A stretch of DNA of 34,469 nucleotides from Candidatus Doudnabacteria bacterium RIFCSPHIGHO2_01_FULL_45_18. Its GTDB lineage: Bacteria > Patescibacteriota > Doudnabacteria > UBA920 > O2-02-FULL-48-8. Made by a program: the position numbers and the translations under genes. Below the pieces are notes generated by a model that saw only the letters and a program-made list of their open reading frames with translations, did not search any database and was not told the DNA's origin. Where the stretch lies: contig MFEJ01000019.1 in assembly GCA_001779915.1 (NCBI GenBank), positions 1 through 34,469 on the forward strand, written 5' to 3'. This document shows positions 4,547 to 10,291 of the stretch, in pieces (the first letter of the stretch is position 1; each line of letters opens with the position of its first letter).

Positions 4547-4560
4547 AAAGCGATTTGCCA

Positions 4561-4590
4561 ATAGCACCGAATGGTGCTATTTTTGTTTGT
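4561..4590 (+). terminator. Rho-independent terminator after rplA
   Basis: The hairpin is ATAGCACC-gaat-GGTGCTAT, followed by TTTTGTTTGT. Confidence 0.75.
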
Positions 4591-4605
4591 ATTACGGAGG
4601 ACATA

Positions 4606-5139
4606 ATGACCGAAGGAAGGATGTCGCAATTTCGCGCTGCTGTGCAGGTGGCCAACAGGACCTTGGAGGTTTGCCGGCGGAGCGATATCCGTTTCGGATC
4701 TGGCCTTTTCTACTGGCACGATGGTGAAGACAAGCGGATGCAAAATCCTGACCCTTCTTGTCTGCCAACGGAAGAGGGGATCTTCATCGAGATGGTTCTT
4801 GGTAGTCCGCTCCATCCGCGTGCGATCCTCACGCCTTGGGGCGCGTGGTTCTGCTATCGGGGTTCGTTCATCCTTGATACCCGTCATGTTGCTGTTTTGA
4901 AGCTGATGGGGATTGTATTGGAGAAGGCGAGCAACGAGCCTCTGCACAACGAGCAAAATCAGCTCATCTACGAAGTGCGGGAGGTGGACCGACTTGCAAT
5001 GCCACGGGCTCGGCTGATGCCTTTCGATCAAGTCACGTACGGATCGGGAATGGAAGATCGACTCGAAGAATGGTGTACGCTCATGCGTCAGTACATTCCT
5101 AGTTACCGCCCCGACCTCGTGTTCGAAACTAAGAAGTAG
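4606..5139 (+). CDS. Hypothetical protein (177 aa) with no recognised family, in the GC-richer island
   Basis: GGAGG lies 5 nt upstream of the ATG at 4606. The ORF is bracketed by + strand terminators at 4561..4590 and 5145..5180. The competing antisense ORF runs through both terminators and looks compositional. Confidence 0.6.
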   Translation: MTEGRMSQFRAAVQVANRTLEVCRRSDIRFGSGLFYWHDGEDKRMQNPDPSCLPTEEGIFIEMVLGSPLHPRAILTPWGAWFCYRGSFILDTRHVAVLKLMGIVLEKASNEPLHNEQNQLIYEVREVDRLAMPRARLMPFDQVTYGSGMEDRLEEWCTLMRQYIPSYRPDLVFETKK

Positions 5140-5144
5140 AGTTT

Positions 5145-5180
5145 CTGGCAGCCGCACTCGCCCTGCCAGTTTTTTATTTT
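5145..5180 (+). terminator. Rho-independent terminator after the 177-aa gene
   Basis: The stem is CTGGCAG-ccgcactcgcc-CTGCCAG, followed by TTTTTTATTTT. Confidence 0.75.
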
Positions 5181-5224: not shown

Positions 5225-5238
5225 TGGCCGATCGGCCA
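5225..5238. promoter_or_regulatory. Perfect 14-bp palindrome TGGCCGATCGGCCA, 15 nt upstream of a -35 box; candidate operator
   Basis: The palindrome was read directly. Its position relative to TTGACA at 5254 suggests an operator. Confidence 0.35.
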
Positions 5239-5253
5239 CCATGGAGGTACAAG

Positions 5254-5281
5254 TTGACATTTCTTTAACTGTATATAAAAT
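5254..5281 (+). promoter_or_regulatory. Sigma70-type promoter: TTGACA, 16-nt spacer, TAAAAT
   Basis: TTGACA lies at 5254..5259 and TAAAAT at 5276..5281. It sits in an otherwise non-coding gap. Confidence 0.55.
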
Positions 5282-5287
5282 AGTATT

Positions 5288-5459
5288 ATGTTAGTTACCC
5301 GAAACAAAAGGATTTGGTCGTCATACGCTGAACTCATCCTAGGACACTAGGACACTAGGGCAATTGTTATCTTCATTTTGTAGCTACCCTCTCCCTCTGG
5401 GAGAGGGGCTGGGGGTGAGGGTTACAATTTCAAAAGCTGCCCTAGTGGGCAGTTTTTTT
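5288..5459 (+). ncRNA. Candidate ~170-nt structured RNA, either a leader/attenuator of the NlpC/P60 gene or a stand-alone sRNA
   Basis: A promoter lies upstream and an intrinsic terminator at the 3' end. Inside are tandem octamers TAGGACAC/TAGGACAC/TAGGGCAA and a 9-bp C-rich/G-rich hairpin. No plausible ORF is present. The TSS position is estimated, not observed. Confidence 0.45.
5436..5459 (+). terminator. Rho-independent terminator, 8 nt upstream of the NlpC/P60 RBS
   Basis: The hairpin is (G)CTGCCC-tagt-GGGCAG followed by TTTTTTT. AAGGAGG begins at 5468. Confidence 0.7.
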
Positions 5460-5478
5460 GTTTGCTCAAGGAGGAGAA

Positions 5479-5979
5479 ATGATTCGTGGATACATGGCTG
5501 TCGGCAACAAGTGCGCGGTTGATTTGGAAGAATTGTGCTTGCCGATATCAACCAAGGCTGCGCTAGAGATTCTCTGGCAAAAAGGGTTTCGGGTCGCTGC
5601 AGTCGATGTCGTTAAACTTGCTCGTGGTTGCGTCAGCAGTAGTCGGTATCGTCGAGGGGCAAATTATTTCGAGGCACCATTCACGGTTGATTGCTCAACA
5701 CTGACCAAATGGGTTTACGCCAAGACAGGAATTTGGCTCCCAAGGCACTCTATCGATCAGCGTGAGATGGGCAAGCGAGTGTCAGATGTCAGAGCTGGTG
5801 ATTTGATTTTTGCGAATGGTGCTAAGCCATATTGGTTTACTGACCCAACCGACGGCGTGGGACACGTTGGTATTTGTACAGGACAGGGTACGGTGATTCA
5901 CGCGGCCAGTAAGGATCGTGGGGTTGTTGAGGATAGCATTGAGGATTTTCGCGATCCAGCGAGAGTTTTAGAGGAATAG
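5479..5979 (+). CDS. NlpC/P60 (C40) family cysteine peptidase / cell-wall hydrolase-like protein, no signal peptide
   Basis: The catalytic-type motifs are present: DCSTLTKWVY (Cys), GHVGICTG (His) and TVIHA (His). An AAGGAGG RBS precedes the ATG at 5479. Confidence 0.85.
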   Translation: MIRGYMAVGNKCAVDLEELCLPISTKAALEILWQKGFRVAAVDVVKLARGCVSSSRYRRGANYFEAPFTVDCSTLTKWVYAKTGIWLPRHSIDQREMGKRVSDVRAGDLIFANGAKPYWFTDPTDGVGHVGICTGQGTVIHAASKDRGVVEDSIEDFRDPARVLEE

Positions 5980-6078
5980 GGAGGTACATAACGGATAATA
6001 CAATCACCCTGGAATCTCCATCAACTCGCCAGGTCGAGTGGTCAGGAGAAATCAGGAACGTGATCGTGCAAACCCTTG

Positions 6079-6114
6079 GCTAACCGTATCAAAATCTCGG
6101 TTAGCTTTTTTTTT
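6079..6114 (+). terminator. Rho-independent terminator at the end of the island
   Basis: The hairpin is GCTAACCG-tatcaaaatct-CGGTTAGC followed by nine T. Confidence 0.8.
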
Positions 6115-6143: not shown

Positions 6144-6728
6144 ATGATTCTATCGGATCGAGATATCAAAAAAGCCCTCAAGAGTGGACGGATTAAAATT
6201 AAACCCGCGCCGGATTTGAAAGTCCAGCTTGGCTCCTGTTCGCTGGATTTGCATTTAGGCAACAACTTTCGCGTGTTTAAACAATCCTCACACCCGTTTA
6301 TAGATTTGAAAGGGCCGGTGGATACAGACAAAATTATGCAGGAGGTCATAGTGTCTGACGACGAACCTTTCATTATGCAACCCGGAGATTTTGCTTTGGC
6401 TACCACAGAAGAAAATTTGGAACTCGCCGATGATTTGCTTGGACGGATCGAAGGCCGGAGTTCACTTGGCCGGCTTGGAATAATTGTTCATGGCACAGCT
6501 TCAATTTTTGATCCTGGCTGGAATGGGAAACCTACTATGGAGCTTGGCAACTTAGGCGTGATGCCGGTTGCGCTGTATCCCGGCATGCGAATTTGCGCGT
6601 TTACCTTTGAGGAAGTTTCTAGTCCAGTGGAAGTGCCTTACAACAAGAAGAAGGATAATAAATATTCCGGCCAGAAAACCCCACTCGCCTCAAAATTGTC
6701 CATCGAAGTCCGTAAGCAAAAAAGATAA
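6144..6728 (+). CDS. dcd: dCTP deaminase (possibly the bifunctional dCTP deaminase/dUTPase type)
   Basis: The N-terminus MILSDRDIKKAL and the motifs SLDLHLG and GRIEGRSSLGRLGI are Dcd hallmarks. Confidence 0.92.
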   Translation: MILSDRDIKKALKSGRIKIKPAPDLKVQLGSCSLDLHLGNNFRVFKQSSHPFIDLKGPVDTDKIMQEVIVSDDEPFIMQPGDFALATTEENLELADDLLGRIEGRSSLGRLGIIVHGTASIFDPGWNGKPTMELGNLGVMPVALYPGMRICAFTFEEVSSPVEVPYNKKKDNKYSGQKTPLASKLSIEVRKQKR

Positions 6729-6768
6729 ACACTTGTTTAGGCAAGTGTTTTAGCAAGTGTTTAAATAT

Positions 6769-6951
6769 ATGCCAAGAAAAATTGATAATAAAAGAAAACT
6801 AACCCGAATCGGCAAATCTTCTCTAGGTTTGTTATTGCCTGCCCAAATGTTGCGCGATCTGAAATGGCGGGAAAAAGAAATGCTGATCGTGAAAAGAATT
6901 CCAGGCGGGTTGGCAATCCACAACGCGAAGACCAAGAAAAGGAAAAAATAA
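6769..6951 (+). CDS. Small AbrB/SpoVT-like DNA-binding protein (60 aa); the GTG at 6757 is an alternative start
   Basis: RIGKSSLGLLLPAQMLRDLKW..EMLIVKR resembles the swapped-hairpin AbrB/MazE fold and the tail is basic. Its stop overlaps the tmk start as TAATG. Confidence 0.5.
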   Translation: MPRKIDNKRKLTRIGKSSLGLLLPAQMLRDLKWREKEMLIVKRIPGGLAIHNAKTKKRKK

Positions 6952-7631
6952 TGTCTAAAGGTAAACTCATCGTAATTGAAGGGACAGATGGCTCCGGGAA
7001 GCGCACCCAGTCAGAGCTTTTATATAAACACCTCACAAAACTTCATATCAAATCCGCCATGATGCACGTGCCGGTTTACGAAAGTTTTACCGGGGAACTA
7101 ATTGCCAGATATCTGCGGAACGAATTTGGCCGACTTAATCCATATTTGGCCGCCACCCTGTTTGCGGTCAATCGGTTTCAGTTTCGGGATAAGATTGTAA
7201 ACTGGCTTAAGGAAGGGCGAGTTGTAGTACTGAACCGTTATGTGACGGCTAATCAAATTCACCAATCCGCGCACTTGCATGGCAAAGAAAAAGCGGAATT
7301 TATTAAATGGATTGGGAAAATGGAATATGAGATTTTCGCCATGCCCAAGCCGGATCTGACGTTGTTTCTAAATGTTCCGGTGCTTATCGCCTCGGGCATG
7401 ATTAAACGCAAGCCTGCGAAGGAGCGTAAATACGCGTTTGGCGGCAAGGAAGACATTCTGGAATCAGATTTGATGCATCAGCAGGAGGCTTTAAAGCAAG
7501 CGCTTCGGATGGCTGGAACTGATAAAAACTCCAGACAAATCAACGCGGCCGGCAAAACCGCCCTGCTTCCCAAAGCGGAAATCGCCGCCATGATTTGGAG
7601 TGAAGTTTCTAAATTTTTAAAGATTAAATAA
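6951..7631 (+). CDS. tmk: Thymidylate kinase
   Basis: It has the P-loop IVIEGTDGSGKRTQ. The start is set at the internal ATG because the upstream extension overlaps the AbrB-like ORF. Confidence 0.92.
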   Translation: MSKGKLIVIEGTDGSGKRTQSELLYKHLTKLHIKSAMMHVPVYESFTGELIARYLRNEFGRLNPYLAATLFAVNRFQFRDKIVNWLKEGRVVVLNRYVTANQIHQSAHLHGKEKAEFIKWIGKMEYEIFAMPKPDLTLFLNVPVLIASGMIKRKPAKERKYAFGGKEDILESDLMHQQEALKQALRMAGTDKNSRQINAAGKTALLPKAEIAAMIWSEVSKFLKIK

Positions 7632-8279
7632 ATGGCTTCATTTGAAATTGAAATCAAAAGTCTGCTCGGAATCAAAGACAATGCCGATAAACTGATAAAG
7701 AGACTACAACTAGATCCGTCGTTTCAATCTTTAGGAAGCCACATGCAGTTGAATCACTACTTTATTAATGGCGACCTGCATAAATTGTCTGACAAACTTA
7801 GCTTAAGCTTGGATTCGAGTTTCGGAAAAGCGAAAGATGTTTCTTTAAGAACCAGGCTGGCGGATGACAAAGTTCTGCTCGTGATTAAAGCGACAGTTGA
7901 TGATACGACTTCGAGCAATGGCACGGCCAGAATGGAATTTGAAACGGAAATCGGCTTAACTTTAGAAAAACTTGATCAAGCACTTCTGGACTGTGGGTTT
8001 GAATATCAAGCCAAGTGGTCGCGAGAAAGACAGGACTTTAAATATCAAGGCCTGAATGTAACTGTCGATAAAAACGCGGGCTATGGCTATTTGGCGGAGT
8101 TTGAAAAGGTGATTGATAACCAGTCGCAAGCTGATGCGGTGAAGGGCCAAATTCGGGAAATCATGGCCAACCTGGGGCTTTTGGAACTAAACCAAGATCG
8201 CCTAGCGCGCATGTTTGATTTCTATAACAAAAACTGGCAGGATTATTATGGAACCGAGAAGGTATTTAATATTGAATAG
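7632..8279 (+). CDS. CYTH-domain protein (triphosphate tunnel metalloenzyme, CyaB/ThTPase-like)
   Basis: The N-terminal ExExK signature (FEIEIKS) and a ~215-aa length fit the family. Later acidic strands (MEFETEI, AEFEKV) are consistent. Confidence 0.75.
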   Translation: MASFEIEIKSLLGIKDNADKLIKRLQLDPSFQSLGSHMQLNHYFINGDLHKLSDKLSLSLDSSFGKAKDVSLRTRLADDKVLLVIKATVDDTTSSNGTARMEFETEIGLTLEKLDQALLDCGFEYQAKWSRERQDFKYQGLNVTVDKNAGYGYLAEFEKVIDNQSQADAVKGQIREIMANLGLLELNQDRLARMFDFYNKNWQDYYGTEKVFNIE

Positions 8280-8281
8280 AC

Positions 8282-9226
8282 ATGGCAACCAAACATCCGG
8301 AATATCAATATCTCGATTTACTGAAGGACATTCTTCACCATGGATACAAAAAAGTTGACCGCGGCACCGGAGATGCGTCTTTCAGCGTGTTCGGCAAACA
8401 AATCCGATTTGATCTATCCGAGGGCTTTCCACTTCTGACCACCAAAAAAGTTTTTTGGCGCGGCATTGTGGAAGAATTGTATTGGTTTATGTCAGGGCAA
8501 ACAAATGTCGCATATCTGGCGCGTAAAGGTGTGCATATCTGGAATGATTATCCATATAAGATTTACAATAAGAAAAATCCCGGGATGACGAAGGATGAAT
8601 TTGTTCAGAAATTAATTGACGATGAGAATTTTGCCAAAGAACACGGCGAACTTCCGAGGATCTATGGTGAAATGTGGCGTCGTTGGCCAACGAGGACGCC
8701 GGGACGGACAATCGACCAATTGGCCTGGGCTATCAAGGAGTTGAAAGAGGATCCCAACGCGCATAATTTGATTATAAATTCCTGGAATCCGGAATATTTA
8801 TACACCATGGCCACGTATGAAGATGCGTCACGTTTTCCGATCTGTCACAATATGTACCAACTGGACATGATTGACGGTAAACTGAACTTACAACTCTACC
8901 AGCGTACAGCCGATATATTTCTAGGAGTACCGTTCAATATCGCATCATACGCTTTGCTCACCATAATTTTGGCGCAGGTGACTGGATATAAACCCGGAGA
9001 GTTTGTTCATACCTTTGGCGATGTGCATATTTATGAAAATCATCTGGAACAGGCTAAAGAACAACTAATGCGCGAACCAAAACCATTTCCGAAAGTGGCA
9101 TTGGATAAGTCAGTAAAAACCATTGACGATTTTACCCCAGACAAGGTCAAACTGATTGATTATGATCCTTATCCGGCATTGAAAGCGGATTTAAGCGTCT
9201 CCGGCGGTTTTTTTGAAAAACAATGA
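8282..9226 (+). CDS. thyA: Thymidylate synthase ThyA, long form with an insert
   Basis: The catalytic site is FPICHNMYQL and the motifs LYQRTADIFLGVPFNIASYALL and GDVHIYENH are present. Confidence 0.97.
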   Translation: MATKHPEYQYLDLLKDILHHGYKKVDRGTGDASFSVFGKQIRFDLSEGFPLLTTKKVFWRGIVEELYWFMSGQTNVAYLARKGVHIWNDYPYKIYNKKNPGMTKDEFVQKLIDDENFAKEHGELPRIYGEMWRRWPTRTPGRTIDQLAWAIKELKEDPNAHNLIINSWNPEYLYTMATYEDASRFPICHNMYQLDMIDGKLNLQLYQRTADIFLGVPFNIASYALLTIILAQVTGYKPGEFVHTFGDVHIYENHLEQAKEQLMREPKPFPKVALDKSVKTIDDFTPDKVKLIDYDPYPALKADLSVSGGFFEKQ

Positions 9227-9708
9227 AATTGATTTTAATCGCGGCGGTTTCGAAAAATGGTGTGATTGGCAAAGCCGATGCTTTGCCTTGGTATATCCCA
9301 GAGGACCTGAAACACTTTAAACAAATGACAACTGGTAAGGCGTGTCTGATGGGTAAGAGAACCTTTGATTCGATCATGAATCGGCTAAAAAAGCCCCTGC
9401 CGGAACGAGAGAGTATCGTGGTGTCTCGCCAGACTGATTGGCAACCGCCAGAAGGGGTAAAGGTTTTTCACAGTTTGGAAGAAGCGCTTAAGTATTTGGA
9501 GCACCACAAAGAAGTCATGGTTATTGGCGGCGGGCAAGTCTACTCGCAAACAATTGATAAAGCTGATAAACTTATCTTGACCGAAGTTCACAAAGAAATA
9601 GACGGTGATGTGCTCTTCCCTAAGTTTGACAAAAGTCTTTGGAATGAAGTTTTTCGCGAAGACCACCCGGAGTTTTCGTTTGTGGAATATGAAAAAAATG
9701 AGCAATGA
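9223..9708 (+). CDS. folA: Dihydrofolate reductase
   Basis: LIAAVSKNGVIGKADALPW and MGKRTFDSI fit DHFR. Its start overlaps thyA as ATGA. Confidence 0.93.
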   Translation: MKLILIAAVSKNGVIGKADALPWYIPEDLKHFKQMTTGKACLMGKRTFDSIMNRLKKPLPERESIVVSRQTDWQPPEGVKVFHSLEEALKYLEHHKEVMVIGGGQVYSQTIDKADKLILTEVHKEIDGDVLFPKFDKSLWNEVFREDHPEFSFVEYEKNEQ

Positions 9709-10291
9709 ACGCGATATAGATTTTCTATACGAAATTGGATCCTTGCGGAATGTCCCACGAGGTTGGCGACAGCATTTGGGTTTTGATGTGGCGTCTGATT
9801 TAGAGCACACTTATCGTTTGATTTGGTTGGCCATAATAATTTCGCGAATGGAAAAAATGGGTGACGAAAGCAAGATTATAAAGATGGCCTTGGTTCATGA
9901 TGTCGCCGAAACCAGAACCTCGGATTTAAGTTATGTTCAGAAAGTTTACGTCAAAGCTGACGAACATAAAGCTGCAGATGACATGTTTGCCGGGACTATT
10001 GTCGCGGATTATCGAAAAACTATTGAAGAATATGAGAGTCGAGATTCAATTGAAGCGAAGATTGTGAAAGACGCGGATAATCTGGATATTGATCTGGAAC
10101 TGAAAGAGATTGAGGAATTAGGTTCGAAATTACCCGGTAAATGGACCCAGAATAATCGAAAATTAGTCAGAGAACAAAAGTTATATACCGAGTCGGCGAA
10201 AAAACTCTGGGATGAAATCCAGACCTCGGATCCTTCGAACTGGCATCGCAATATGAATAAATGGCTCACTGACCCAAACGCGGGAAAATAA
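9689..10291 (+). CDS. HD-domain 5'-deoxynucleotidase (YfbR-like); alternative start at 9698
   Basis: It has the LVHDVAETRTSDL HD motif and DADNLD. The long 9605 start was rejected because it overlaps folA by more than 100 nt. Confidence 0.78.
   Translation: MKKMSNERDIDFLYEIGSLRNVPRGWRQHLGFDVASDLEHTYRLIWLAIIISRMEKMGDESKIIKMALVHDVAETRTSDLSYVQKVYVKADEHKAADDMFAGTIVADYRKTIEEYESRDSIEAKIVKDADNLDIDLELKEIEELGSKLPGKWTQNNRKLVREQKLYTESAKKLWDEIQTSDPSNWHRNMNKWLTDPNAGK

Follow-up and report, generated by a model that had tools for sequence, protein, structure and literature searches.

In the amino-acid attenuators of Enterobacteria (trpL, hisL, pheL, thrL and leuL) a short open reading frame (ORF) carries an antiterminator arm at its end and is followed by a terminator before the first gene, and a ribosome at the stop codon favours termination. 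We found the same arrangement in front of a gene for an NlpC/P60 protein in a contig of Candidatus Doudnabacteria bacterium RIFCSPHIGHO2_01_FULL_45_18 (MFEJ01000019.1, all 34,469 nucleotides, referred to below as the window). We consider it likely that positions 5254–5478 of the window form a ribosome-mediated (leader-peptide) transcription attenuator, belonging to an undescribed family that is widespread in the bacteria of the candidate phyla radiation (CPR/Patescibacteria). This leader differs from the amino-acid attenuators in several respects. Those contain codon runs, whereas the CPR leader encodes a conserved peptide of 13–14 residues with a fixed Trp10. The CPR leader has no Shine-Dalgarno (SD) sequence, is predicted to be leaderless and does not have a conserved 1:2 pairing. 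Its regulon is one of folate and one-carbon genes instead of amino-acid biosynthesis, and its hosts are CPR/Patescibacteria.

Nascent-peptide sensors are the second group of related systems. TnaC (tryptophan) and SpeFL (ornithine) share with the CPR leader a peptide conserved at the amino-acid level, an essential-looking Trp, a presumed action in the exit tunnel and control over the transcription of an operon. TnaC and SpeFL work by Rho-dependent termination and have SD-led starts, whereas the CPR leader has an intrinsic terminator/antiterminator switch and a fixed distance to the N-terminus, and its arrest and ligand are only presumed. The antibiotic-sensing leaders ErmCL, ErmBL, Cat86L and CmlAL are likewise very short, and their N-terminal 5–19 residues sense inside the ribosome. 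They mostly control translation by exposing the ribosome-binding site (RBS) and respond to drugs, whereas the predicted output of the CPR leader is transcription termination and its regulon is metabolic. The tetrahydrofolate (THF) riboswitches THF-I and THF-II and the ZTP riboswitches resemble the CPR leader in controlling folate transport and metabolism and one-carbon genes (glyA, folD) in cis, often by an intrinsic terminator. They are RNA aptamers, none of which was detected here, whereas the conserved CPR element is a translated-looking ORF. A preprint on mycobacteria (bioRxiv 10.1101/834739) describes leaderless polycysteine short ORFs that attenuate operons and respond to cysteine. As presented there, these ORFs also sit at the 5' end of the transcript and control the genes behind them; they contain runs of Cys codons, whereas the CPR leader has a specific motif and is found in another phylum and with another regulon. 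The mechanism of the CPR leader would be of a known kind, the family new and the sensing step possibly novel.

An original prediction, made from the letters of the window, had described the region as a promoter, about 170 nt of structured RNA with no credible ORF, and a terminator flush against the RBS of the NlpC/P60 gene. All of its signals are located in the sequence, on the forward (+) strand. The terminator of the upstream gene is followed by a sigma-70-type promoter at 5254–5281 (TTGACA 5254–5259, a 16-nt spacer and TAAAAT 5276–5281), which matches the consensus at 11 of 12 positions and is the top one of 12 promoter-like sites in a consensus scan of 6 kb. An intrinsic terminator lies at 5432–5459 (CTGCCC 5437–5442, a TAGT loop, GGGCAG 5447–5452 and seven T at 5453–5459; −16.1 kcal/mol); its core can be extended to an 11-bp stem at 5432–5457. 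The SD sequence and the start codon of the NlpC/P60 gene (5468–5481) consist of AAGGAGG at 5468–5474, 8 nt past the T-run, and ATG at 5479–5481. Since promoter, leader and terminator stand flush against the RBS, the gene should be expressed only by read-through. One of the two parts of the description that failed is the lack of an ORF: an unannotated leader ORF of 20 codons, MLVTRNKRIWSSYAELILGH*, occupies positions 5288–5350 and is conserved across a family. Its ATG is at 5288, TGG at 5315–5317 and the stop codon TAG at 5348–5350, without an SD sequence in front of it. Codons 1–14 (5288–5329) make up the family motif, with W10-S11-S12-Y13.

Relatives of the NlpC/P60 protein numbered 38 in the protein database, all from CPR/Patescibacteria-type sources. 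We fetched 80 genome loci encoding NlpC/P60 homologs, 77 of which had a determinable start. Searches of the leader DNA against these loci by blastn-short and nhmmer matched only the terminator core CTGCCC..GGGCAG, and this match led to the family. A leader ORF is present in 48 of the 77 loci, 120–165 nt upstream of the gene and always with Trp at codon 10. The family is recognized at the DNA level by the block ATG-N24-TGG-TCN-(AGY/GGN/TCN)-TTY, which was first seen 120–140 nt in front of the gene. In an unbiased search 43 of 46 candidates had an in-frame ATG at a distance of exactly 27 nt upstream of the TGG; the other three have GTG starts or a wrong anchor. The encoded consensus is M-[LI]-x-[NT]-[KH]-x-[IL]-[KQT]-[TI]-W-S-[SG]-[FY]-[IVA], followed by 0–14 unconserved residues, and the frame is open for at least 14 codons in every family locus. 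We also scanned metagenomes with a DNA pattern that covers just the leader ORF and takes no account of the gene behind it. At least 120 further loci matched, and nearly all of those listed are genuine members of 14–28 codons. The peptides contain no run of a regulatory codon; their conserved part is the motif M-x8-W-S-[SG]-[FY]. Leader peptides and motif strings had no match in Pfam, NCBIfam, a 15-billion-protein collection (exact look-up) or the searched literature, and hundreds of these leader genes are absent from protein catalogues. Whether residue 12 is Ser or Gly was considered as a marker for the class of the downstream gene and was discarded, as there was no association.

The pattern of conservation is that of a coding sequence. 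Over codons 2–14 the information content amounts to 1.06 bits at the first, 1.20 bits at the second and 0.51 bits at the third codon position. Ser11 occurs with each of the four TCN codons, and Ser12 is encoded by AGY or TCN. The leader is thus conserved as an amino-acid sequence and not as a nucleotide sequence, as is characteristic of nascent-peptide arrest sensors. A conserved small ORF was the observation that the original prediction had itself named as counting against a riboswitch, and conservation at the amino-acid level is what is seen. The same data bear on the idea that a protein binds the leader RNA as an antiterminator, or its DNA as an operator, with the ORF being incidental. Three UAG triplets at 8-nt spacing (5340–5358) could serve such a protein, and the conserved AAAACNTGGTCNRGNTT block can be read as a binding site. 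UAG-triplet spacing recalls RNA-binding antiterminators such as HutP or TRAP. The repeat with the triplets is specific to the population of the window, however, and the closest relative (locus L093) has two UAGs only. The conserved block has third-position freedom and switches between Ser codon families, for which reason a nucleic-acid binding site would not be expected to persist; moreover, the ATG keeps its upstream distance of 27 nt in all cases, and at least 14 codons of the frame are always open. We regard a protein-binding site of this kind as extremely unlikely.

The window copy was assigned to the family in two ways. A regular expression for the family pattern (start 27 nt before TGG, W10-S11-[SG]12-[FY]13) has a single match in the window on both strands. 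A peptide hidden Markov model (HMM), built without the sequences of the window and of L093, gives the ORF at +5288 the top rank among 2063 ORF starts, with E = 0.052 against 2.1 for the runner-up. With a DNA profile of the leader ORF the window copy was not found significantly. Such a difference between the two models is expected if conservation is at the amino-acid level. The leader peptide of L093, MLITRNKRIWSSYQESALAH, shares the I9/Y13 variant of the window and precedes an intact NlpC/P60 gene; together with the peptides of L091 and L092 (MLLTHSKQIWSSF...) it bridges the window peptide to the consensus. When the window is compared with L093, five codons differ among codons 1–13, four of them synonymously, whereas all four changes in codons 14–20 are non-synonymous.

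The second element of the attenuator is a pair of alternative helices. A repeat finder showed that TGCCCTAGTG (5438–5447), which comprises the 5' arm of the terminator and its loop, is the perfect 10-nt complement of 5353–5362. This segment, CACTAGGGCA, pairs at 10 of 10 positions and is therefore the 5' arm of an antiterminator; the stop codon of the leader ORF lies 2 nt upstream of it. The antiterminator encloses a variable hairpin P2 (AATTGTTA...TTACAATT, 5363–5429), which is enlarged in the window by an insertion, where L093 has a short P2 of 6 bp. The whole leader folds with −70.8 kcal/mol (z = −5.3 versus shuffled sequence), in agreement with the structured RNA of the original prediction, although much of this z-score stems from an inserted G-rich hairpin at 5386–5422. 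Both the free leader and the nascent RNA (up to 5446) use the antiterminator pairing in their minimum free energy (MFE) structure. When the RNA is masked up to 5360, as it would be by a ribosome whose A site contains the stop codon, the terminator fold results.

Both helices are conserved in relatives. A terminator between leader ORF and gene was found in 106 of 151 family leaders. Among 101 non-identical leaders the antiterminator arm has a median span of −3 to +16, counted from the stop codon's first base, and it starts at median nt 62 from the ATG. Pairing of the arm within its own locus (−14.4 kcal/mol) is stronger than across loci (−10.0 kcal/mol; Mann-Whitney p = 2e-24), with a median z of −4.1 against shuffles. 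Covariation was assessed on a MAFFT alignment of 28 leaders with 500 shuffles and with slid controls. For the antiterminator 87% of the cells are paired, and 7 of 12 pairs have changed on both sides, including positions of the terminator loop; none of the 500 shuffles reaches this score, and the slid controls remain at 60% or less paired. For the terminator together with P2 the paired cells likewise make up 87%; both sides have changed in 8 of 15 pairs, and again no shuffle (0/500) reaches the score. The search for homologous leaders before NlpC/P60 genes and the covariation test, both suggested along with the original prediction, thus yielded a family with covarying helices, and the attenuator layout with expression solely by read-through gained the matching antiterminator.

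A metabolite-binding riboswitch would explain the same helices differently: an aptamer in the leader of about 150 nt, binding a folate, a cell-wall precursor or a cyclic dinucleotide, would switch them without translation. An antiterminator/terminator pair beside the RBS is indeed a riboswitch-type expression platform, the leader folds well (the z-score given above), and the THF and ZTP riboswitches have regulons that overlap with that of the leader. The original prediction, which named a riboswitch among its options, recognized no described class, and the covariance models of Rfam agree with that part. Over the whole window only a tRNA was detected at gathering thresholds, and no riboswitch class (THF, ZTP, ydaO/c-di-AMP, the NLPC_P60 motif or any other of Rfam) reached its gathering score in the leader. 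The best match of the leader at E ≤ 10 was Phe_leader, with 29 bits against a gathering score of 55 and driven by the terminator. In 20 homolog loci (gathering thresholds) and 10 metagenome loci (E ≤ 1) only tRNA, tmRNA and chance-level matches were obtained, so that neither the window nor the 30 related loci contain an Rfam riboswitch family at threshold. The sole family-wide segment upstream of the switch is 42 nt long; its codon periodicity, its fixed ATG and the switching between synonymous codons are those of a short ORF and not of an aptamer. P2 varies in length and sequence and tolerates an insertion of about 60 nt, and the inserted hairpin supplies much of the z-score of the fold. We judge a riboswitch to be very unlikely.

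For the leader-peptide attenuator we propose the following course of events. A strong promoter would start the transcript at or adjoining the AUG of the SD-less, 20-codon leader ORF. In the nascent RNA the segment CACUAGGGCA (5353–5362) would pair with 5438–5447 to form the antiterminator, and the polymerase would enter the NlpC/P60 gene. A ribosome that reaches the leader stop codon would cover 5353–5362; the terminator (5437–5459) would then form and transcription would stop 20 nt before the gene. NlpC/P60 would be expressed whenever the leader ORF is not fully translated in time. We infer that residues 1–14 of the leader slow or arrest the ribosome; the conserved first 13–14 residues would act from within the exit tunnel, at about codons 13–15. 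A ribosome held at codons 13–14 would end at about nt 52–57 and leave the arm (median start nt 62) free, which would allow read-through.

The start of the leader ORFs is unusual throughout the family. SD-like 4-mers precede 17 of 165 leader ORFs versus 103 of 160 main genes. Hexamers resembling a −10 box peak 6 and 9 nt upstream of the leader ATG. Such a hexamer lies 5–10 nt before the ATG in 72 of 157 distinct upstream sequences, versus 23 of 157 at control offsets, and matches to the −35 box are enriched as well. In the window 6 nt separate the −10 box from the leader ATG, one of the two preferred spacings of the family. The arrangement TAAAAT, 6 nt, ATG therefore predicts a leaderless mRNA, with transcription starting at or adjoining A5288, in agreement with the earlier guess of a 5' end near 5288. 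Other leader ORFs are placed directly behind other genes: 46 follow a long ORF, in many cases rplA or rplK, within 40 nt of its stop codon (that of L093 11 nt after rplA), and 21 begin at most 31 nt from the 3' end of a tRNA (L080, L011, L027, L091, L050, L065 and others). In two cases the A of the ATG overlaps the last base of the tRNA. At such loci the role of a promoter-proximal 5' AUG may be taken over by re-initiation or by processing of the tRNA 3' end.

The genes behind the leader point to folate metabolism. Pfam families were counted on 112 first downstream ORFs among the metagenome loci listed by the pattern scan. The first genes are Vut_1 (44), NLPC_P60 (27), CofE-like F420_ligase (10), FGase (3), SHMT (2), FolD (2), HPPK (1), a FolC-like Mur ligase (1) and a SerA-like dehydrogenase (1); the NlpC/P60 family of the window is thus the second most frequent one (27/112). 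Second and third ORFs encode CofE-like proteins (39), DHFR/RibD_C (8), SHMT (4), FolD (3), ThyA (1) and DHPS (1). In the commonest operon Vut_1 (PF02592) comes first and a CofE-like gamma-glutamyl ligase (PF01996) second, an order seen in 31 of 34 cases; DHFR, SHMT or FolD sometimes follow (L094–L213, e.g. L102, L126, L104). In Chlamydia the function of FolC is taken over by a CofE homolog (PMC1971073). Judged by gene content, the leader family appears to head a folate-salvage and one-carbon regulon; folate or pterin import is the suggested role of the CPR Vut_1 proteins, and the CofE-like ligases would be folylpolyglutamate synthases of the FolC2 type. Sequence comparison establishes the leader ORF, its amino-acid conservation, its SD-less start, the alternative covarying helices and the set of genes that the leader would regulate.

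Because the leader heads operons with Vut_1 and a FolC2-type ligase, DHFR, SHMT, FolD, HPPK or NlpC/P60, the signal is presumably a shortage of folate or one-carbon units. Initiation at SD-less or leaderless AUG codons depends on the formylated initiator tRNA in E. coli. Conceivable read-outs, which do not exclude each other, are formyl-tRNA-dependent initiation and an arrest modulated by the N-terminal formyl group or a folate species. We suspect the N-terminus as the sensor because the distance from Met1 to Trp10 is invariant. In its most specific form this would make the M-x8-W-S-S/G-F peptide a direct translational one-carbon sensor, acting via fMet-tRNA/10-formyl-THF, N-terminal formylation or a folate in the tunnel; when folate is short, the ribosome would be absent or arrested and the folate-salvage operons would be on. 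We put this forward tentatively and think it doubtful on balance. If true, it would be a functional analogue, based on protein synthesis, of the THF and ZTP riboswitches in bacteria unable to make ZMP, and the first arrest peptide linked to a vitamin cofactor.

CPR/Patescibacteria account for a large share of bacterial diversity and have minimal genomes with scavenged cofactors; to our knowledge almost nothing is known about their gene regulation. The presence of the leader in well over a hundred of their loci suggests an undescribed, translation-based control of folate genes. The family provides a compact (about 120 nt), sequence-defined cis-regulator with a clear regulon, which makes folate sensing testable in vitro. 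The family also yields predictions of function: CPR Vut_1 proteins would be folate/pterin transporters, the CofE-like proteins folylpolyglutamate synthases, and the NlpC/P60 family without signal peptide a folate gamma-glutamyl hydrolase and not a cell-wall enzyme.

Some leader ORFs have the minimal length of 14 codons (L022, L028, L059, L073, L086, L128, L164, L205) and end right after W-S-[SG]-F-x. Many of the 14-codon leaders are without an intrinsic terminator. They may control translation via access to the RBS, or act at the termination step, instead of controlling transcription.

The window copy has two derived features. The first is an 8-nt tandem repeat at 5339–5362 (CTAGGACA, CTAGGACA, CTAGGGCA; 2.6 copies), which holds both the stop codon of the leader ORF and the antiterminator arm. 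Two full CTAGGACA units are present in the window, L002 and L009, and one in L001 and L006 of the same population, with an unchanged peptide. Compared with L093 the window has one extra 8-nt unit, which moved the stop codon 8 nt further away from the arm, and an insertion of about 60 nt in P2. In the 3-copy allele the MFE structure is the antiterminated form. Between the alleles the spacing from stop codon to antiterminator shifts by 8 nt, and the predicted MFE structure flips from antiterminated to terminated. The copy number of the repeat could in this way tune the attenuator, possibly phase-variably.

The original prediction had also compared the layout of the leader with type III toxin-antitoxin loci, in which a promoter, a repeat RNA antitoxin, a terminator and a toxin gene follow each other. 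The order of elements is superficially the same, and it is the only likeness to ToxIN: the size and number of the repeats, the protein family and the conserved ORF all differ. ToxIN, CptIN and TenpIN have several copies of a 34–45-nt unit, whereas the only tandem repeat here has 2.6 copies of 8 nt. One of these copies arose by recent duplication, and relatives as well as part of the population lack it. The downstream gene encodes an NlpC/P60 peptidase with a conserved triad, not an RNase of the ToxN/AbiQ/CptN/TenpN type, and its protein has no PADLOC match. The same leader elsewhere precedes transporters and folate enzymes. A toxin-antitoxin locus is almost certainly not what we see here.

The second derived feature is the inserted, G-rich nested hairpin at 5386–5422 (ACCCTCTCCC-TCT-GGGAGAGGG-GCTGGGGGTGAGGGT), a copy of a small, widespread element; it is not part of the conserved attenuator and occurs once in the window and not at all in L093. 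A pattern of the element, (A)CCCTCTCCC-NNN-GGGAGAGGG-GCTGGGGGTGAGGG(T), in which 32 bases are specified, has exact matches in 11 unrelated viral contigs of IMG/VR (L214–L224). The sequences flanking these copies show no relationship, and the variation is confined to the 3-nt loop. Some of these copies have an extra upstream CCCTCACCC, which would pair with GGGTGAGGG. Translation of the element gives PLPLGEGLGVRV-like strings, and its sequence had no match in the searched literature. The element may be mobile, a recombination site or convergent. The 5' ends of L003, L005 and L010, which are contigs of the same organism obtained from other samples (window positions of about 5350–5420), break in this hairpin and end in long poly-G runs, which looks like a sequencing or assembly artefact at the hairpin. 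The 19 contigs that encode the identical protein are near-clonal; they differ only by the 8-nt indel and the poly-G artefacts and were of no use for covariation.

These changes make it necessary to consider that the window copy is a decaying relic, an attenuator-derived leader before a pseudogene that no longer regulates and whose switch has been locked in one state by the insertion and the duplication. It is a real rival because of the insertion, the duplication, the variation between alleles and the frameshifted target. In all 19 contigs a frameshift removes about 40 conserved C-terminal residues of the NlpC/P60 protein; P2 carries the G-rich insertion, an 8-nt duplication is present, the peptide deviates at T9 and F13, and the MFE structure of the 3-copy allele is antiterminated, as stated above. 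Against decay stand the intact leader ORF, the antiterminator complement of 10/10, the perfect terminator and the near-consensus promoter. The I9/Y13 variant is also present in L093, whose gene is intact, and the catalytic Cys, His and His lie upstream of the frameshift and are kept. We therefore hold the relic to be unlikely.

Several further observations weigh against a functioning leader-peptide attenuator in the window and have to be set beside the evidence for it. With its frameshifted target, the insertion in the leader and the duplication, the window copy could be decaying. Its peptide is divergent (I9, Y13), its HMM E-value is only about 0.05 and the DNA profile misses it. In the 2-copy repeat allele the MFE structure consists of a small CCUAG/CUAGG hairpin plus the terminator. 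The conformers with terminator and antiterminator are near-isoenergetic at equilibrium (−68.0 versus −70.8 kcal/mol), so that the argument for the default state is a kinetic one; in terms of the calculated folds, such closeness is as expected of a switch. About 30% of the family leaders have no recognizable intrinsic terminator. An anti-antiterminator like the trp 1:2 pairing, formed by the body of the ORF and the antiterminator arm, was considered and dropped as not general (median z = −0.2); small local hairpins are present in the 2-copy allele of the window and in L093. Translation of the leader ORF, the start of transcription and termination at 5459 are predictions from sequence, and the sensed molecule and the ribosome arrest rest on inference. 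The E. coli YhhQ protein, a member of Vut_1, is a queuosine-precursor transporter; the commonest member of the regulon is therefore tied to folate only via its operon partners.

The NlpC/P60 (C40) gene itself spans 5479–5979 and encodes 166 residues with the Pfam domain NLPC_P60 and the catalytic Cys-His-His residues. Homologs have about 190–245 residues, and about 40 conserved C-terminal residues are lost from the window product by frameshift. The rest of the C-terminus (…FRGIGRYITDNTITLESPSTRQVEWSGEIRNVIVQTLG*, 5943–6083) can be read in the −1 frame up to 6083 (FRGIGRY...ITLESPSTRQVEWSGEIRNVIVQTLG), with the frameshift in a zone of about 5959–5984. It is not a sequencing error, since the same 166-residue product is found on 19 contigs from several samples. 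No canonical slippery heptamer was seen at 5959–5984, and the change was treated as a mutation and not as programmed frameshifting. A truncation of the N-terminus by the leader, suggested by the greater length of the homologs, was likewise rejected, as the N-termini align with those of homologs and the C-terminus is the lost part. Past the ancestral end of the gene a terminator-like hairpin with nine T (6080–6114) was recognized by reading the sequence; the regulated unit is probably monocistronic.

Proteins of this NlpC/P60 family have no signal peptide and an intact Cys-His-His triad, and their closest relatives in the PDB are peptidoglycan endopeptidases. The solved relatives (family C40) cut gamma-glutamyl bonds of peptidoglycan stems. 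From the missing signal peptide, the intact triad and the bond specificity of the solved relatives, the family may, by analogy, be a cytoplasmic gamma-glutamyl hydrolase that acts on folates. The genes that follow at 6144–10291 are co-directional and serve the synthesis of dTMP and the recycling of folate: dcd, tmk, a CYTH-like gene, thyA (8282–9226), folA/DHFR (9223–9708) and an HD-domain 5'-nucleotidase. thyA and folA thus lie 2.3–3.7 kb downstream of the NlpC/P60 gene; the window contains def and fmt as well. Relatives share the synteny rplKA-NlpC/P60-dcd-tmk...thyA.

On the upstream side, the intrinsic terminator of the preceding gene lies at 5145–5175 (CTGGCAG 5145–5151 and CTGCCAG 5163–5169, an 11-nt loop and six T). 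It was identified by reading, as its loop exceeds the limit of the consensus scanner, and is predicted to shield the leader from upstream transcription. The perfect 14-nt palindrome TGGCCGATCGGCCA at 5225–5238 (no strand assigned), with which the original prediction began, is present; it is not above chance, with three such palindromes in the window (starts 754, 5225 and 8680) against 2.1 expected, and it was not found in the loci of relatives. It is probably outside the regulatory system. Between rplA and the leader the window contains an ORF (4555–5139, 177/194 residues) without a Pfam or PADLOC match. In relatives (L093 and the contig of P0006) rplA is followed directly by the leader and NlpC/P60. 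The stretch at 4–6 kb has a G+C content of 0.49–0.50 versus about 0.43, and the region of this ORF may be an insertion through which the leader gained its own promoter.

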